Assembly (NCBI GenBank): GCA_024137785.1
Contig: JAHRHZ010000016.1
Span: forward strand, 46,976,936 to 47,040,935
Direction of reading: 5' to 3'
From: Ginglymostoma cirratum
Taxonomy: Eukaryota
DNA length: 64,000 nucleotides
In this document: positions 32,788 to 56,770 of the stretch, one piece after another
How the letters are laid out: every line of letters starts with the position of its first letter
Position numbering within the stretch: position 1 is the first letter of the stretch
Notes under the pieces: generated by a model
Seen by the model: the letters and a program-made list of their open reading frames with translations, nothing else
The model's database searches: none
What the model was told of the DNA's origin: nothing
Position numbers and translations under genes: made by a program

Positions 32788-32866
32788 TAGGCCCGAAACG
32801 TCAGCTTTCCTGCTCCTATGATGCTGCTTGGCCTGCTGTGTTCATCCAGCTCTACACCTTGTTATC
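32788..32866 (+). mobile_element. 5'-truncated PLE-terminal repeat (same family as 54767-54864), lacking CTGATGA
   Basis: taggcccgaaacgtcagctttcctgctcctatgatgctgc...acaccttgttatc ends at the same nucleotide as the 54864 copy. Confidence 0.85.
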
Positions 32867-35800
32867 ATAGTTAAGGATAGCTAGTTCCCCATTGCTTGAC
32901 AATCTTTGAAAATCAACTTCTTATCTGAAAATCATATATGGCAACAGGATAGAGAGAGTATGGTGCGTGCATGTGTTTGTTGTGTGTGTGTGCCTTCTCT
33001 ATACTTAGTGCAGTTTCTGAAATTTACAGAATTCTGACAAAACTACAAGTGTGTAGTTCATGCAAAAAAGTCCACCTGAATTAAACTTGGCCTCTTGAGA
33101 AATTATTTTGAAATGAGCTTGTGCTAAGAGTCTGAAGATTTTCATTGTGATATGAAACGTGACCAAAATAAGCTAGTTTTTTTTTTAAAAAGGCATTTTC
33201 TTTCTCATCCCCAGTGTTGCTCGTGAATTTTAGAATACACTTTTTTTTTTTGCCTGTTGTTTTTGTATGGTTCTTTCCTCTTCCAACCACCCCTTTTATG
33301 TCTGCTAGCTTGCTTTTTTTTTATCTGCTCAGATTTTTGTCTCTTTTGTTTCCTTCTGTCTCTGTTCTCTTCTGCTTTCCTCCACAGGGGTAGCTTTTGG
33401 CTCACAGATCAAGAGAGTGAACTGACCAGGGCACAGTTCAACTTTCAGGTCGTGTGAAGAATATGGCCAGGGCAGTGGGCCAGCACTGGATAGTGAGAGG
33501 TGATCAGTATGACACCACAAAATTTTAAGTCAGGTGGGTGGCATATAGAGCACAATATTAAAAATTGAAGAGTCAGAGGATTGAAAGGTAAATATGTGTG
33601 GTAAGTATGCATGCTGAATCTGAAAGGTTTAAGAGGAATCTGCTGGATGTAAAAACTTGAAAGTAAAAACGTTTCATGCAAAACTTTATGTACTGATCTC
33701 TGTCCTTCTGTTCTGTACTCTTCTGTGTGATCTTTCATGTGTTTGGTGCTGTCAGTGGATGCAAGGAAGAATTTTTTTATGCCTGCATTTTTAATGAGAA
33801 TAACTTATATTCACTTTGGGAGACTGCAATCCTTATTGAAATTTCTACTGTCATTTGAAATGTTCTGGTACGTTAGGGGTAAAGTGAAATTTATATTTGT
33901 GTGTTAAGTGTTAGTCACTGCATCAAAGTTAGTTGCTCTTTAAATTTGAAGAGGTGGTGCCCCCATTATGTATAATATTGCTTAGGTGCCTGACTAGGTA
34001 CCATTTCACAGCGGAAGTAAAGCTTATTTCTTCAATCACCGTTTGTAGTGAATGAGTTTCACTGTTTGAAATGCTGAAATGATTACCTTAATATCGGCAG
34101 GGCAACAGATACTAGCTGCTCGCAATCAATAGAATGCAAACCAAAATCTTAACTGTGAAGTAGCATATGATTTATTCTAACACTTAAAATAATCATTTTG
34201 CAGCCTTTGATTTTTAGCAAAGGTATATCGTTTATGAAAATATAAAAATGTTGTTTTACGGTTATATCTGTGTGTAAAGTGTCTAACATCATTTGCTGTA
34301 GACATAATGCTTGTTTTCACAGTGCAAGCCTATTTTCTAGAGTCTGCAGTGTATATAGTTATGATGAGAAATTTGCCTGGGACTGTACTTGTTGGAGCAG
34401 AAAGATATAAGTAGCTTAGAGGATTATTTAAATGTTGAAAGAGTTTAAGTGGGTAAGTATTATAGAATTGTATTTGTTGGCCAGTGAATCAGTAATATTG
34501 AGTGTACTTAAGCTCAGGGTTAATATGAGAACCAATAGTTAGAAGCATATTCTCATGAGATGGTGCTGCAATATGGCCTCTGATGTCTAGTCTTTTGAGA
34601 AATTTTAAATTTCACAAAAATCAGCTCCTGTATCAGAACATTATAAATCGTGTTCCCTGAGATGACTGTGCTTTGTTCTTTTTAAAAACTTTTTGTTCTC
34701 AAAAGAACAAGAAAGTGGAAATTAGAAGGCTGCACAGCTACCCGTCTCTGTCTATTAATTAGAATGTCTCATCTGTGATTTTCTGCAAAGTCCTATTAGT
34801 GGAATTAATACCAATCATTCACCATCTTTCCTGAGGTGATCAGCAGATTAGAGAAATTCCTCTCCAGAGTTTTCTGAAAGGAAGGATTGGAAGGACTTGA
34901 ATGATTAAAAATGTCATTCAGGAGTAAATTTGCTTAATTTACTTTATTCTGAATATATTAGTTCTGCCCTGATTAAGAAGGAAGATTGTAGTCCAGTTAT
35001 TTGGATGGTTTTGGAGAACATCATTATATTATGCACATGATAAAAATTAGTTAAGAAATTAAGCAAAACCACCTGGTTTAATTGCTGTAAACCCATGAAT
35101 GATGTCGGTCTACTCATGAAAAGCCATCTTTCTCATCAAACCACATTTTAAATTGTAACTCTGTGGAAGTAGAGTGAAGTCATGCTAATGATACTTAAAA
35201 CTGAAACTCAGGAACAAAACATGATCTTGCTGATCTCAATGTCTGCGTTGGACCATTATTATTTGAACTCTTGACTCATTCAGAATCGTTCAAAGCTACA
35301 TTATGCATTTTTATAGTAGGTTACAATATTTTCGCCACAACTTTTGCATTAACTTCTCCTGTACACCTGAAACTTGATCTTTATTTATTGGAAAATCGTG
35401 TGCCTCGTTTACTGAGGCTTGGTGACTAAAATCAGTGCCTCATGCAGTGCAAATTGTTATAAGGCCTGAGAGTGTCGAATTTAATTCCCAATCTACATTA
35501 ATTAATTGATCTCATTTGGTGAAGTAATTATATCATTGCAATTGGCCTTGGTGCCTCTGTTCAGAAAGAGTTAATCTGTGGGAATTGCTATTGCTGCTTG
35601 CCATGCAGACCGTCTTGTTGGCAAAATGAATGCGTGTGTGTAGATGTCAGGTGCCTCTATTGTGCATTTTTTAGTTGATTAACTCAATGCTGTTATAGTT
35701 CAAATGAAGGATTAGTTAGCAGGGTTTACTTGTTGGATCCTGCATCATTGTAACCTAGTAAGAGTTGGTGCTTTCAGGAGGCAAAAAAAAGGGTACTCAG

Positions 35801-49829: not shown

Positions 49830-52292
49830 CAGGCGTGAGGTAGTTATTGAATTAATAATCCAGAGGCCCAAGCAGATGGTGGAATTTAGATTAATAAACC
49901 TGGAATTAAAATCTAATCTAATGATGACTGTGAATCTGTCAATTGTTGTAAGAACCCATTTGGTTCACTAAAGTGAAATCTGCTTTTCCTACCTGGATAG
50001 TCTACATGTGACTCTGGACCCACTGTAATGTTGTGGATTCCAAAAGCCATCTGAAATTATCTAGCAAGCCAGTCAGTTGTATCAAACTGTTAGAAGGCCT
50101 AAAGAAAGGAATGAAAGTGGACACACCACCTGGCATCAACCCAGGCACACAGGAAATAACAGCAGCAAACTCAGCCTTAGCAATCTTTTAAAGTCCTTCT
50201 GATTGACTTTTGGGACTTGTGCCAAAATTGGTTGAGTTGTCCTGCAGAGCAGTCAAGCAGTAGCTTGACATCATTTGTAGGATACGCTTCCTCGTGTATG
50301 ATCATGTCCCGGACAACGTAGCCATCCCTGAAAATGTCCTGCTGCCAGGACAATTCAGAACTAGCAGCATACTTCAGTTGGAGGGGAATTGCCACGGGAG
50401 ATTGCCTCAAGATTGACACCAGGCCCCATGAAGTAACTTGGCATTGGGCATGAAAACCTCCTGTTGGATACCACCTACTAACTACCCTCGGCTAATGAAT
50501 CAATACTCCATGTTGAAAACAACTGGAAGGAGCATGAGGGTGACAAGGACACGGCATGTACTCAGTTGAGGACATCGGTGTTCATCATCTAGATTCGTTC
50601 AGTAGTGCCGCTACATAGTAAGTTGGCTAAGTCCTAAAAAGTATAACCAGGTCTGTGGTAAGTGGTGAGAGAACCAACAAGGGGAAAAAATTTACATGAC
50701 CTCATCCTTACTGATCTACCTTTCATAAATGCATCTGTCCATGACAGGACTGACTTCGCACATTTCTTGTAGAGATTGTCCCGTTTTCATATTTAAGATA
50801 CTCTTCCATCATGTGTGGTAGGACCACTGAGGTAAATGGGATAGATTTCTATTTAGGAAGTCAAAGAAAAGGGCAACTTTGAGGCACTGTGGGCCATCAG
50901 AAGTAGATTTGTATTTGACCACAAATCTGTAGTCTCATGTGCTAGCCTAGCTCCCCTCGTCACTTGCTCAACAGTAGCTTGCTCATTAGCATTTAGTTTG
51001 CATTCTGCCAGGGTCGCTTCATTACAACATTGATGCAAATATAGTTGAACTGCAGCGAAGAGATGAGGTAAGAGTAACCTTAACAGCAAGGCAACATTTG
51101 ACAAATGATAGCATCGAGGAGCCCTAGCAAAACATGTATAAATGGGTATTAGTGGGACAGCTCTGAACTGTTTGGAATCATACTTAGTGGAGAGGTGGAG
51201 AAGAAAGGAAGTGATTGTGGTTATTGGAAGTTAATCTCCCCAGTTCCAGTCATTGCTACAGGAACCTTTTCAGGTAAGTGTCTAAAGCCCAATCATCAGC
51301 TGCTTCATCAATGACCATCCTTCCGTCATAACGTCAAAAGTAGGGATGTTCACTGGTGGCTGTACAGTGTTCATTTGCAAAAGCTCAAACTGAAGCTGTC
51401 CATGTTCATATTCAGCAAGATTTGGAAAGTATCCGGGCATAGATTGGCATTTCTGTGGCACAACTGTTACCAAACAACGATCATTTTCAACAAGAGAATC
51501 TATCCATCAGCCTTTAACATTCAATTGTATTACCATTGTTGAATTCCTCCATAATTAACACTCTAGGCGTTACCATTGACGAGAAAATGAACTAGATCAG
51601 CCATTTGAATGCTGTCGGTGTAAAAGCAAGTCAGAGGCAAGGAATTCTAGGAATAATGACTTCCGTACGCTATCCACCATATATAATGCACATCTCAGGG
51701 AGAGTGATGGAATACTTTCTACTTTCTTGGATGGTTGTCGCTCCACACCACTCATGAGAAAGAGCCTAGACCCCATCCATTACCTTCAACATGCATTCTC
51801 TTCACCACTGATGCAGAAACCCGCCACGGTTCTTTTGACAATACCTTACAACATGTGAAAACTGATGCTGTAACTCAGGAACAAAACAAAGTTGCTGGAA
51901 AAGCTCAGCAGGTCTGGCAGCATTTGCAGTTCTGAGAAAGGGTCACTGGACCTGAAACGTTAACTCTGTTCTTTTTTCAACACAGATGCTGCCAGACCTG
52001 CTGTGCTTTTCCAGATACTTTGTTTTTGTTCTTTCCAGCGTAGTTTGTGCTACCTTAAAAGACAAGGACAGCAGAGATGTGTGCAGTACCATTTGCAAGT
52101 TCCCCTCCAAGTCACTACCATCCTGACTCTTTATCGCAGGGTAAAAGTTATGGAACTCCTGTCTTAACAGTATCACATGTTCACAAACTTAATGGATTGT
52201 AACAGTTCCTCATCACCTTTTCAAGGGCAGTTGGGGAAGAGCGATAAATGCTGACTTAGCTATCAATGCACACATCCGTCGGCAAAATTAAA
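49830..52292 (+). mobile_element. CR1/L2-group LINE with tRNA/Deu-SINE-like 5' head, copy B, with 3' tail
   Basis: Head 49830-50060 and continuation colinear with 46589-47300; RT region 51280-51600; tail aagggcagttgggg...ataaatgctgacttagc. Confidence 0.7.
51858..52031 (+). mobile_element. Hairpin element (same family as 226-443) inserted in LINE copy B
   Basis: caggaacaaaacaaagttgctggaaaagctcagcaggtctggcagcat ... atgctgccagacctgctgtgcttttccag; core CTGAGAA-A-GGGTC-ACTG-GACCT-GAAACGTT at 51932-51961. Confidence 0.85.
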
Positions 52293-53179
52293 AGAAAAAA
52301 TATCTGCTTTATATCCTAATTGTTTTTGAGTTTGCTGCCAGTTTTTATTTTGAGGTTTTTATTGTTGACGTGCCAATCTAAAAGATGGGTTATTATTTTC
52401 TAACTGCTCAATAGGTCCCAAATTACTGTGCCTCAGAGCAATTTCTAAAGTAACCTGTGGCGCAAAGTCTCAAGGCAAAGAGATAACAGTTGGCTAGTTT
52501 GATAGTTGAATGTAGTCTGCTAATAGGAAGTGCTACAGAGAAGAATCCAGAGACGGAGTGTAAATGCCTCAGTCTGTGGCCGCATTCTGGACAATTCTCA
52601 GTCAGACTCAAATCAGTGTTCATTAGGCAGGTTTGCTCAGAAATAGCGTGTAATTTGATTTTTCAACCTTCTGTCGTTGCAATTTGTATTACGCTGTTCC
52701 GAAAAGGCCTCTGAATTTTCATTTCTATTTTATCACCCCAGTCATTCCTGTAATAACATACACGTTCAGAATTAGAAATTTGTGAATTGGTTTGAAGTGT
52801 ACTAAACACAATTTTTCTTGTGAATAGTCATTTCAGAATTGGTGGGAGAGGGCTTGTGATATATTGGGAGGAATAGTCTTAGATTGGGCAGTAACTTGGT
52901 AACTAGAGGGGATAAACAGAAGGTATTTACCAAAAAAATGAAGAGGGAAATTAATGTATTTATTTTTACCAGTTTGTTTGTAAATGAAATAACTGAATAT
53001 TGGAGGCAAAATCCTTACAGAAAGAGGGCTTGGGTATGAGCAAAGTGGATAATATTGGAAATGGCAATGGAACTGATTGGAAATAAAAGGTACTGCAGAT
53101 GCTGGAGAATCCGAGATAACAAGGTGTGGGGCTGGATGAACACAGCAGGCCACGCAGCATCATAGGAGCAGGAAAGCTT

Positions 53180-53207
53180 GACGTTTCGGGCCTAGACCCT
53201 TCATCAG
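53180..53207 (-). ncRNA. Minimal type I hammerhead ribozyme core (minus strand)
   Basis: Reverse complement CTGATGA-A-GGGT-CTAG-GCCC-GAAACGTC. Confidence 0.75.
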
Positions 53208-53212
53208 AAAAT

Positions 53213-53612
53213 NNNNNNNNNNNNNNNNNNNNNNNNNNNNNNNNNNNNNNNNNNNNNNNNNNNNNNNNNNNNNNNNNNNNNNNNNNNNNNNNNNNNNNNN
53301 NNNNNNNNNNNNNNNNNNNNNNNNNNNNNNNNNNNNNNNNNNNNNNNNNNNNNNNNNNNNNNNNNNNNNNNNNNNNNNNNNNNNNNNNNNNNNNNNNNNN
53401 NNNNNNNNNNNNNNNNNNNNNNNNNNNNNNNNNNNNNNNNNNNNNNNNNNNNNNNNNNNNNNNNNNNNNNNNNNNNNNNNNNNNNNNNNNNNNNNNNNNN
53501 NNNNNNNNNNNNNNNNNNNNNNNNNNNNNNNNNNNNNNNNNNNNNNNNNNNNNNNNNNNNNNNNNNNNNNNNNNNNNNNNNNNNNNNNNNNNNNNNNNNN
53601 NNNNNNNNNNNN
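53213..53612. other. Assembly gap (400 N)
   Basis: Run of N. Confidence 1.
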
Positions 53613-54104
53613 ATTTTACTATCCTCCATGTGTCTATCCAAGAGTCGCTTAAAAGACTCTAGAGTATCTGACAAAAGAAATTCGTCCTGATCTTATTTTG
53701 TTTTGAATTCTACGTTCACATAACCTTTGATTCCCTTGCCTAACAAGAATCTATCCACCTCTATCTTAAAACCATTCAATGAATCCTAAACCAAAAACAA
53801 ATTGTCTCATTAAAGATGGTGACATTAGATGGACAATTGTTTTCAGGTATCAAATTCAAAGTACCATTGTGTGTTTGATGTTGATTTAACGTACCTGGAT
53901 GTACCATGGCGTTCAGTGTTTCATGGGGATGCAGACTGTCTTTGTTTATCTGACCACTTCATTTAATCTTGTGCACATTTACGTATGCTTTCTGATGTCT
54001 TGCATGAATTTTGTTCCATGAGTATTAGTTTGATATTTAATGGAGGGCTTTAGTGATAATTTGGCTCAGTGGCTCTAAGTTGAAAAGTTTTGCAAGTTGT
54101 CTTT

Positions 54105-54520
54105 TGAGCAAAGGTTGGACAGGCTAGATTTGTATCCACCCGAGTTTAGAACAGTAAGTCAAGAATTGATTGAAACATATAAGATTCTGAAGGGGTCTTG
54201 ATAAGATGACTGAGGAAAATATGCTTTCTTTTGTGGGACGTTGGAGAGCTAGGGGTTATAATTTAAAAATAAGGGTTCACGCATTTAAGATAGAGATAAG
54301 GAGAAGGTTTTTCTTGCAGAATGTTGAAAGTTTTTGGAAGATTTTCTTTCAAAAAGGGCAGACTCTTTGAACATTCAATAGATTCTTGATCAACAACTGG
54401 GTGAGAGAACAACAAGGGCAGCCAGGAATGCAGATTTGAAGTTACAAACAACAATGATGTTATCGAATGGTGGTGCAGGCTCAAGGAGCTGAGTGGCCTA
54501 TTCCTACTTCAAATTCATAT
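54105..54520 (+). mobile_element. Old CR1 3' fragment
   Basis: ttgattgaaacatataagattctg (LIETYKIL); tail atcgaatggtggtgcaggctcaaggagctgagtggcctattcct. Confidence 0.75.
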
Positions 54521-54768
54521 CTTTGTAAGTTGTATGTGTAAATCCAATTGCAAAACTTAGCGCGCTGAGTGAGTAGTGCATTGTCAGATAAGCCAACTTT
54601 GGGATGAAATGTTGAAGTAATTGCTCTGTTTACCTCGACATAAAATTGCAAATGGTATCACTTGATGTAGTGGAGAAGTCTTGACCAAAATTTAGATCTC
54701 AATCAAAACTGCCAAAACTTGTCATTTATCACAGTGTTGTCTGTGGGACCTTGACTTATGTAAATAAT

Positions 54769-54802
54769 TTTCTGATGAAGGGTCTAGGCCCGAAACGTCA
54801 AG
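54769..54802 (+). ncRNA. Minimal type I hammerhead ribozyme motif (sense to RLIM, last intron)
   Basis: TTT-CTGATGA-A-GGGT-CTAG-GCCC-GAAACGTC-AAG; all core nucleotides present, 3-bp stem I, palindromic ACGT stem III. Confidence 0.75.
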
Positions 54803-55070
54803 CTTTCCTGCTCCTATGATGCTGCGTGGCCTGCTGTGTTCATCCAGCCCCACACCTTGTTATCATGGAACTGATTGGAGAGCTGTTTCAGACAGTTTAT
54901 GTAGATGAAGCAAGCGGAGTTGCCTCTTTTTCTACAATTCGAAACAATCATACTAGATTTTATTCCAACAGTGTGGAGGATTCATATCATTCAGTGTATC
55001 AAAAGGATCCTACAAGGTGGGTGTACTAAATCTTCTAGTTGCTAATGAATTCTTTTATTTTACCCCATAG

Positions 55071-56770
55071 GTGCTGAGGGTTCAGAAGAAGGATCAAGTG
55101 GAGATTCTCTTCTAGAGTGGTTAAATGCTTTTAGACAGACTGGGAACACAACGAGAAGTGGACAAAGTGGGAATCGTTCCTGGAGAGCAGTCAGTCGTAC
55201 AAACCCAACAAGTGGTGATTTTAGATTCAGCTTGGAAATTAATGTCAGTCGGAGTAGAATTGATCAAAGTGCTGAAATGGAAAGTGAGCAACCTATGGAC
55301 ACTTCAAATGTGGTAGGAACAGTGCCTGCAGCAGAAGAAGCAGTGATACCAGTACCATCAGAAAATATAAGTGCACCCCCATCAACAGCAATGCAACCAC
55401 CACCAACTGTAACAGATCTACCAATGGTTATGACAGAAGAAGGTATTCAGAGTCAGCCTGAAAGGTCAGCTTCCACTGGAACACGACGAAGTCGAGGACC
55501 AAGTGGAGAGTTATCTTACGAAAACAGATATGAACTTTTGAGACATGAGCTTGAAACCCAAGCTCAACATCAAGGTCGCCCAAGAGGTGGTAGAAGTAGA
55601 AGTCCAGAACGCCGAAGGTCTTCTAGAACCAGGAACAATCGAAGTCGGTCACCCTTGCATCCAGTCAGTGAGGGGACGAGTAGATCACGACGTCAAGGAC
55701 TTTCCCAGAGGCCTGATAGATCCATTTCAGAAAGTGGAACAGAAGGAATTTCCAGAACTAGACAGCATGTCGTGTCCAGACAGAGTCGGGTTGGAGATGG
55801 GGTCCAGTCTGAAACAACTAATCACGTTCCTGTTCTTGAGCCAAATGAACGTAGAGAGCCTTCCCAAGAAGCTGCTGACTCTTCAGAAGCTGTGGTCAGT
55901 GATCCCTCTGTAGCTGGGCGCCGACCACCAACCATTATGTTAGATCTTCAAGTGAGAAGAGTGAGACCTGGTGAAAATGCAGATAGAGATAGTATAGCCA
56001 ACAGGACCCGGTCACGATCCCAAACATCTGACAACACTGTTGTATATGAAAGTGAGCGCGGTGGGCTCAGGCGCACATTCTCCCGCTCTGAGCGAGCAGG
56101 GGTGCGAACTTATGTCAGCACCATTCGTATTCCTTTTCGCAGGATATCTGATTCGGGCCTTGGAGAGGCCGCCTCGGTTGCCCTCCAAACAATACTACGC
56201 CGAATAATGATGGGTGGTGAACTGAGTTCATTTGTGGACAGTGACAGCGATTCTGAATCTAGCAACAGGGGCCAAAGTCAAGTGCACGATGTTTCTGAAT
56301 CGCAGAACAGTACAAGCGAATCCCCAGGCATGGCTTCTGAAGGCAGAACGGGCGAGCAACAGGCAGGAGAACAGCGGAATGGCAGTGAAACAGATAGCAT
56401 AACTGGAGGTAGGAGAAGAGAAGGTCAGCAAACCCGAGGCTTATTTGGCCTTGAAGAAAGTGGTACTTTGCCCATACTTAGGCTTGCTCATTTCTTCCTG
56501 CTCAACGATGAAGATGAGGATGATCAGCCCAGGGGACTGACTAAAGAACAGATTGACAACTTGTCCACGAGAAATTTTGGAGAAAGTGATGCTATTAAAA
56601 CCTGCAGTGTGTGTATTAGTGAATACACAGCAGGAAACAAGCTGCGCAAGCTACCCTGCTCTCACGAGTATCATGTTCACTGTATTGATCGCTGGCTGTC
56701 TGAAAACTCCACATGTCCCATATGCCGTCAGGCTGTTTTAGTTCGCACCGCTGGTGAAAGTGTTGGCTAG
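55071..56770 (+). CDS. RLIM: RLIM terminal coding exon: SR-rich/basic region and C-terminal RING-H2
   Basis: Acceptor tcttttattttaccccatag|. Encodes [89 protein letters not shown] and CSVCISEY...[24 protein letters not shown]. Total CDS 184+108+1700 = 1992 nt. Confidence 0.97.

Follow-up and report, generated by a model that had tools for sequence, protein, structure and literature searches.

A young Penelope-like insertion in an intron of a predicted RLIM-like gene of Ginglymostoma cirratum, with an interior that is probably mis-assembled

Results

The insertion and its host gene

The window analysed here, a 64,000-nucleotide stretch of the Ginglymostoma cirratum assembly, holds an insertion with inverted arms and a TSD, which lies in an intron about 190 bp upstream of a large coding exon (Table 1). 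The exon matches Pfam zf-RING_2, and its best match in the PDB is RLIM (E 4e-49). The host gene is, as predicted from this homology, that of an RLIM-like RING E3 ligase, and we take RNF6, the paralog of RLIM, to be the alternative identity for this exon.

Table 1. Features of the insertion and of its surroundings, in positions of the window
Feature	Position	Strand	Remark
TSD, left copy	53067-53081	+	Single copy at the empty site of organism A
33-bp PLE tail, on the left arm only	53082-53114	-	Other copies of the family likewise have it on one arm
Left arm, inverted pLTR end, putative minimal hammerhead motif (core about 53180-53207)	53115-53212	-	
Stock assembly gap of 400 N, length unmeasured	53213-53612	.	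11 of 13 internal N runs exactly 400 in L001-L098
1154-bp interior, likely mis-assembled	53613-54766	+	100% identical to the sequence beside another copy of the family, G000:C289:14919864-14921017 (-)
49-bp stretch (hammerhead core) common to the window arm and the C289 copy	54767-54815	+	Switch point inside
Right arm, pLTR end without tail, putative minimal hammerhead motif (core 54772-54799)	54767-54864	+	
TSD, right copy	54865-54879	+	
Large last coding exon, predicted RLIM-like RING E3 ligase gene	55071-56770	+	ORF; Pfam zf-RING_2; PDB match

Direct comparison within the window showed the two arms to be exact reverse complements over 98 bp, as had been reported in an earlier reading of the letters alone (the first-pass annotation), and the 15-mer of the TSD occurs exactly twice in the 64-kb window. 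That annotation had the unit flanked by this 15-bp TSD; the duplication is indeed exact, but the left arm does not touch it, a 33-bp tail standing between the two. The left segment (arm and tail) is accordingly 131 bp long and the right one 98 bp. Such a one-sided tail and TSDs of 12-17 bp are also seen in other copies of the arm family, and the inverted pLTR layout with a tail of 30-40 bp on one end is that of EN+ Penelope-like elements (PLEs). The left arm terminates at the last base of the shared arm end, which is the common truncation point of the family, and it is abutted, as annotated, by the 400-N gap, the sole N run of the window. The length of about 1.8 kb given earlier for the unit does not hold in the same way, as it includes a gap of placeholder length and an interior whose proper place is probably another locus. 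The same intron region carries a small hairpin insertion that is older and comes from a related PLE family (51883-52026), with 44-bp arms of 91% identity and a decayed hammerhead core, and another 81-bp piece of the window's arm family (95%) lies at 32788-32868, without the first half of the hammerhead core.

Identity of the element and of its hammerhead motif

The element that the arms belong to can be recognised from a relative at locus L211, where a body with matches to RVT_1 (E 4.7e-6) and GIY-YIG (E 6.5e-4), both below the Pfam curated cut-offs, terminates in a family arm (91.8% identical to that of the window). The reverse transcriptase and C-terminal GIY-YIG endonuclease of an EN+ PLE are thus found in this relative, the window copy being without an ORF. 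Between the two domains of L211 lies a C-X4-C-X2-C linker, which conforms to the CX2-5CxxC motif that marks Neptune/Nematis (PMC8557442). On this homology, the window arms are assigned to the terminus of a known EN+ Penelope-like element with a Neptune/Nematis-type linker. The L211 body itself (L211:1116-3930) is 5'-truncated, with RT, linker and GIY-YIG interrupted by stops and frameshifts, and has an inverted internal piece ahead of it; L026, L168 and L192 are partial tandems in which the tail runs on into more element sequence and a second arm. Inverted 5'-truncated PLE insertions with a one-sided tail are described as troubling short-read assemblies (Craig et al, 2021; PMC8557442). In the part of that paper drawn on here, these insertions share with the window the inverted repeats, the tail of 30-40 bp on one end, the TSD and the pLTR hammerhead, whereas the window copy differs from them in having no ORF and an apparent interior of host DNA from another scaffold.

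The conserved core letters of the hammerhead are present in the arms, with a loopless helix III and a helix I of only about 3 pairs. The core letters and helix II expected of a minimal type I hammerhead were found at 54772-54799, helix II being seen in a 76-nt fold. A search of the arms against Rfam returned nothing at the gathering score and nothing by E-value (the lone chance match had E 5.7), and monomer folding yielded no three-way junction (z 0.25). A stable monomer fold and an Rfam match are both missing, as is expected of a dimer-type motif. The arm motif is probably of the minimal, dimeric hammerhead type and would be a putative ribozyme. The earlier statement that each arm has an intact core therefore stands for the core letters, but not for a helix III loop, an Rfam match or a hammerhead fold of the monomer. 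Metazoan PLEs carry minimal hammerhead motifs, some of which are mentioned as lying in pairs on opposite strands, 100-700 bp from each other (Cervera and de la Pena, 2014; PMC4209133). The motifs, as described in the portion of that paper used here, resemble that of the window in their loopless helix III, their short helix I and an unpaired base before helix II, and differ in a helix I of 4-5 pairs as opposed to about 3.

The site is empty in a relative

In organism A, a relative about 95-98% alike, the contig passes directly from 53066 to 54865 in 3 of 3 runs (X1, X4 and X9, from three studies), and this empty orthologous site holds the 15-mer once. The insertion is real and its TSD is true. 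It postdates the split from organism A, since the site is empty there, and the identity of its arms (100%) and of the family copies (97-100%) suggests that it is young. The annotation had called it a recent PLE insertion with a TSD and had proposed looking in a relative for an empty site with a single TSD copy; both the call and the check were borne out. A further run, X15, is near-identical to the window, with 0-1 differences in the flank pieces. Its contigs lie on both intron flanks at a depth of 3-5 and none lies on the unique interior bins, a missing cover that was not counted as evidence. In the same run, a 4109-base contig is joined at the exon acceptor (55069) with 341 letters from elsewhere.

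The interior exactly matches sequence beside another family member

The interior contains no stop-free stretch longer than 81 aa and has no blastn match to the PLE body, in agreement with the annotation, which had seen no PLE ORF there; a tblastn comparison of the interior with PLE RT/EN gave a chance match only (E 0.48). Old repeat fragments, which we take to be of the CR1-type LINE, are found at about 53613-53680 and 54100-54500. The interior had been read as such fragments amid unique-looking sequence, and the second half of that reading is lost: one other full copy exists, 100% identical over 1154 bp (40 copies scored of 3587 candidates), on scaffold C289. The sequence adjoins there, in the same orientation, a solo copy of the arm family with its own 10-bp TSD, which supplies the donor locus beside the same PLE repeat that had been suggested as a check. 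C289 is gap-free at this place, and the flank continues into the end of a LINE-like repeat. In organism A, the orthologs of the interior are found on contigs of their own, and these continue past 54770 without an arm, so that C289 is the ancestral home of the interior. C289 was considered as a haplotype duplicate of the window and rejected, as the similarity ends at the interior and arm.

The identity between window and C289 reaches 49 bp into the arm and then breaks at 54816, 54825 and 54826, where the right arm of the window agrees with its left arm and not with C289. The two arms differ from that of C289 at 3 of 98 positions (94.9% identity over 136 bp), as against 0 differences in the 1154 bp of the interior. 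A single C289 transcript is excluded as the template, because the interior is of the C289 type and the arms are not; for the same reason, a switch must lie inside the 49 bp, either in the cell or in the computer. These observations bear on the reading favoured by the annotation, that cargo was mobilised by transduction (which here would mean one RNA that included the 5' flank of the C289 copy) or in a Pack-like, non-autonomous element. The donor segment directly adjoins a family arm in the same orientation, and host DNA between pLTRs with a TSD is known in Adineta vaga (PMC3846280). In flank transduction, however, the element part of the new copy should be that of the donor element, and the window arms lack the C289 variants; a Pack-like element should have several copies with both termini and the same cargo, and only the window and C289 hold the interior among the 40 copies scored of 3587 candidates, so that there is no cargo-bearing family within that set. 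The model would have to invoke a third copy as the source, one that has window-type arms and is missing from the assembly. The transduction or Pack-like model appears largely refuted by the mismatch of the arm variants, and we regard it as very improbable.

The capture reported in Adineta vaga deserves closer comparison. Host DNA, an NRPS gene in one instance and non-coding sequence in others, is framed there by pLTRs of Pen3a, and both a TSD and an empty site are on record (Arkhipova et al, 2013; PMC3846280). Going by the part of that report used here, unrelated DNA between pLTRs, the TSD and the empty site are common to both. The Adineta cargo, in contrast, lies in a full arrangement between two direct pLTRs, whereas the interior of the window lies between inverted arms and abuts a gap; the donor arm of the window mismatches the window arms, and the join is known from the assembly alone. 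Cargo would be joined to both arms in a capture of the Adineta type; in the window, the left join is a gap and the right join crosses a 49-bp repeat.

Centres and fillers in the arm family

The arm end has 899 exact 41-mer copies genome-wide in the assembly (G000), and our sample consists of 89 regions from 97 of the first 100 listed matches among them, L101 having been dropped as the same unit as L100. Two arms and a TSD were found in 38 of the 89 regions, 25 of them gap-free and 13 with a 400-N gap. The centres of the gap-free units measure 0-15 bp in 20 of 25 cases, and 34, 40, 71, 138 and 149 bp in the rest. Gap-free fillers of 40-248 bp number five, all with donors 0.6-4.4 kb away at 98.5-100% identity. 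The longest belongs to L054:1359-1827 (G000:C16, about 30 kb upstream of the window), a gap-free unit with two identical arms and a 14-bp TSD, whose filler is a 248-bp inverted exact copy of C16:46943765-46944011, 4.4 kb away, the donor being without an arm. The others, L171, L180, L140 and L120, have fillers of 40-149 bp with donors 0.6-1.4 kb off, three inverted and one direct, and no adjacent arm was seen at the donor of L171. Real fillers are therefore local and short in 5 of 5 gap-free cases. L167, L110 and L132 were examined as long fillers and rejected as separate neighbouring insertions.

Among the 13 other two-armed units with a gap in our sample, none has more than about 50 bp of foreign, non-PLE sequence against the gap, from which it follows that an assembly error of the kind discussed below is uncommon. 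Some gapped copies (L022, L032 and L038) have long arms that extend into the PLE body. The insertion in the window could likewise be longer than a tight hairpin, its arms reaching PLE body sequence within the gap, and the interior would be misplaced all the same; both of its arms, however, have the truncated type of end, which continues into the body in only 2 of 93 cases, and we give this version hardly any credence.

Gaps, repeat hub and graph node

Loci L001-L098 contain 13 internal N runs, 11 of them of exactly 400 and 2 of 10; runs of 100, 3000, 5000 and 10,000 are also present in the assembly. Ten of the eleven 400-N runs lie at PLE arms, a proportion to be read with the fact that most loci were chosen for the arm, yet 2 of the 3 others do likewise. 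Several gaps hide overlaps of their two sides, so that 400 N is a placeholder and not a measured length. Gaps of 10 N and 100 N fit the linked-read assembler of PMC5411770, the use of which we infer from gap sizes; it works with k=48, writes paths as lists of graph edges and joins read-pair paths over 200 bp, according to the part of its description drawn on here. A documented 400-N convention was found neither in the parts of PMC7757076 and PMC5411770 covered nor by literature search.

The arm end is a large repeat hub in the assembly, 78 of the 89 sampled regions sharing at least 47 bp with the window arm. The interior begins exactly where the C289-specific edge would begin for k=48, as one of the 32 other copies examined, a copy of the LINE end in C77, shares positions -1 to 46; k values of 47, 49 and 50 predict interior starts at +1, -1 and -4. 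The first five bases of the C289 flank imitate a hairpin with a one-base centre, a type of centre that was counted in 4 of 93 arm ends. Four other copies with this continuation were found, and among them C289 alone has the full 47-bp end in common with the window as well. The features of a De Bruijn mis-walk are present here, namely an exact duplicate, a switch in a repeat of at least k and an end at a graph node by a gap. The first five letters of the interior are also those of the arm, which resembles a near-zero microhomology junction as in the gap-free L054; this was rejected as evidence, because the position is that of the k=48 node as well.

Other remote exact copies end in gaps

If hairpin-like branches attract wrong extension, other look-alikes are expected to be exact duplicates that end in gaps. 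Hairpin-like letters begin 1 of 30 foreign continuations (L184), a count to be taken with a rough regex sorting of arm ends, since L133, L164, L174 and L176 among these 30 'other' ends are junction stutters. At L184:2542-3058 (C13:61038598-61039114), 517 bp are 100% identical to the flank of an arm in C268, 50 bp of arm are shared, and the copy ends in a gap of 10,000 N; the 19 kb that follow showed neither a partner arm nor a TSD. The 29 matches of a pattern search included the pair of the window and C289 and a third pair, C145/C249 (L233), whereas a control pattern with 13 matches gave 0 duplicate pairs. The third pair (C145 near 29876042-29876258) is exact over 217 bp and shares 75 bp of arm; 400 N follow, and a partner arm is not in view. 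When this duplicate was tested for a graph node at its end, the best shared stretch was 43 bp (28 other copies of 1888 candidates). All three remote arm-adjacent copies are thus 100% identical and end in an N gap, and C13/C268 and C145/C249 are likely to be the same assembly error as the window.

Discussion

We propose that a tight hairpin PLE insertion was probably extended wrongly by the assembler into the flank of the C289 copy, and that its true centre is likely to be only a few bases long. The first-pass annotation had named a mis-assembled simple hairpin as a caveat; from the switch of donor, the graph node and the parallel cases, it now appears to be the better-supported reading. In such a scenario, inferred from the anatomy of the family and from PMC11167929, the PLE endonuclease would have cut both strands 15 bp apart, and reverse transcription would have proceeded from both ends, with RNA of one kind as the template and with start sites 33 nt apart. 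Both cDNA copies would have halted just past the hammerhead motif and then been joined, and the near-perfect hairpin would have left the insertion centre unresolved in the assembly. The path from the right flank would have entered the 47-bp end common to hundreds of copies and left it via the C289 branch, the entire unbranched C289 edge being written as far as the next repeat node and the remainder filled with 400 N. For Poseidon of Anolis (PAc), it has been described that both strands are cut and extended and that two RT start sites set the tail (Frangieh et al, 2024; PMC11167929). Two-site initiation of this kind matches the arms of 98 and 131 bp in the window; PAc, however, belongs to a different clade, and end joining and cargo are not treated in the part of that study used here.

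Several observations count against an assembly error. An edge start at k=48 is equally expected if a real filler extended into the gap, and a 150-bp read could cover the 50 bp from the interior to the first diagnostic base. The assembler of PMC5411770, moreover, joins read-pair paths over 200 bp, so that a jump of this kind should as a rule be avoided. Genuine templated fillers are present in the arm family, and the window has both arms and both TSD copies, unlike C13/C268 and C145/C249.

These points lend themselves to a capture by homology, in which an arm end invaded the C289 copy, or the RT jumped to a read-through RNA of C289, within the 49 bases in common. Copying would then have taken in 1154 bp or more of the C289 flank, and the product would have been joined to the other arm inside the present gap, either when the cDNA ends were joined or after breakage of the hairpin. 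Arms that are identical and yet unlike those of C289, a crossover within 49 bp and 100% identity in a young insertion are all accounted for in this manner. The window also has a complete pair of arms and TSDs, which the two other remote-donor cases lack. Real fillers between arms are known from the five gap-free units described above, and look-alike donors could likewise be preferred in the homology-guided repair of a broken hairpin. L1 is on record for template switching and templated insertions, together with twin priming (PMC11702581). If the interior is real, these processes would provide the mechanism class, as they are set out in the part of that work drawn on here, with the difference that L1 is a non-LTR element with poly(A), whereas the window arms are duplicate copies of one RNA end. 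Against such a capture stands the contrast between the gap-free fillers, all local and of at most 248 bp, and the remote arm-adjacent copies, all ending in N. The latter also start hairpin-like in 3 of 3 cases, compared with 1 of 30 foreign continuations, although the second and third were selected on this trait. Arms more than 1 kb apart would, furthermore, leave a hairpin-type gap flush with the left arm for no obvious reason. We consider homology capture unlikely, albeit worth retaining.

The two outcomes have different consequences. If the assembly error is the true explanation, what was really inserted is a hairpin of a known and ordinary kind, specific to its lineage and situated in an intron, and 'cargo' of PLE arms in this assembly should be trusted only when gap-free, because sequence at the edge of a gap can be borrowed from the flank of another copy, as in three cases here. 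If homology capture is true, the window would hold visible inter-chromosomal copying of flanks guided by PLE termini, which would be a route to the duplication of host DNA and of relevance to end joining in PLE insertion. No report of inter-chromosomal flank copying by PLE termini was found in a thin literature search by title or abstract start. In a more general form, cDNA ends or fresh hairpin tips would invade sister copies on other chromosomes via the hammerhead-bearing arm and copy their flanks; we hold this to be doubtful. The family would in that event move kilobases of host DNA between chromosomes, with the window, C13/C268 and C145/C249 as three events.

A minor observation concerns the arm end itself. 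The 899 copies share one stop position, which lies a few bases upstream of the hammerhead core. Stuttered repeats of that end are often present at the junction, and the common stop may mark the 5' end of the RNA or a stop of the reverse transcriptase.
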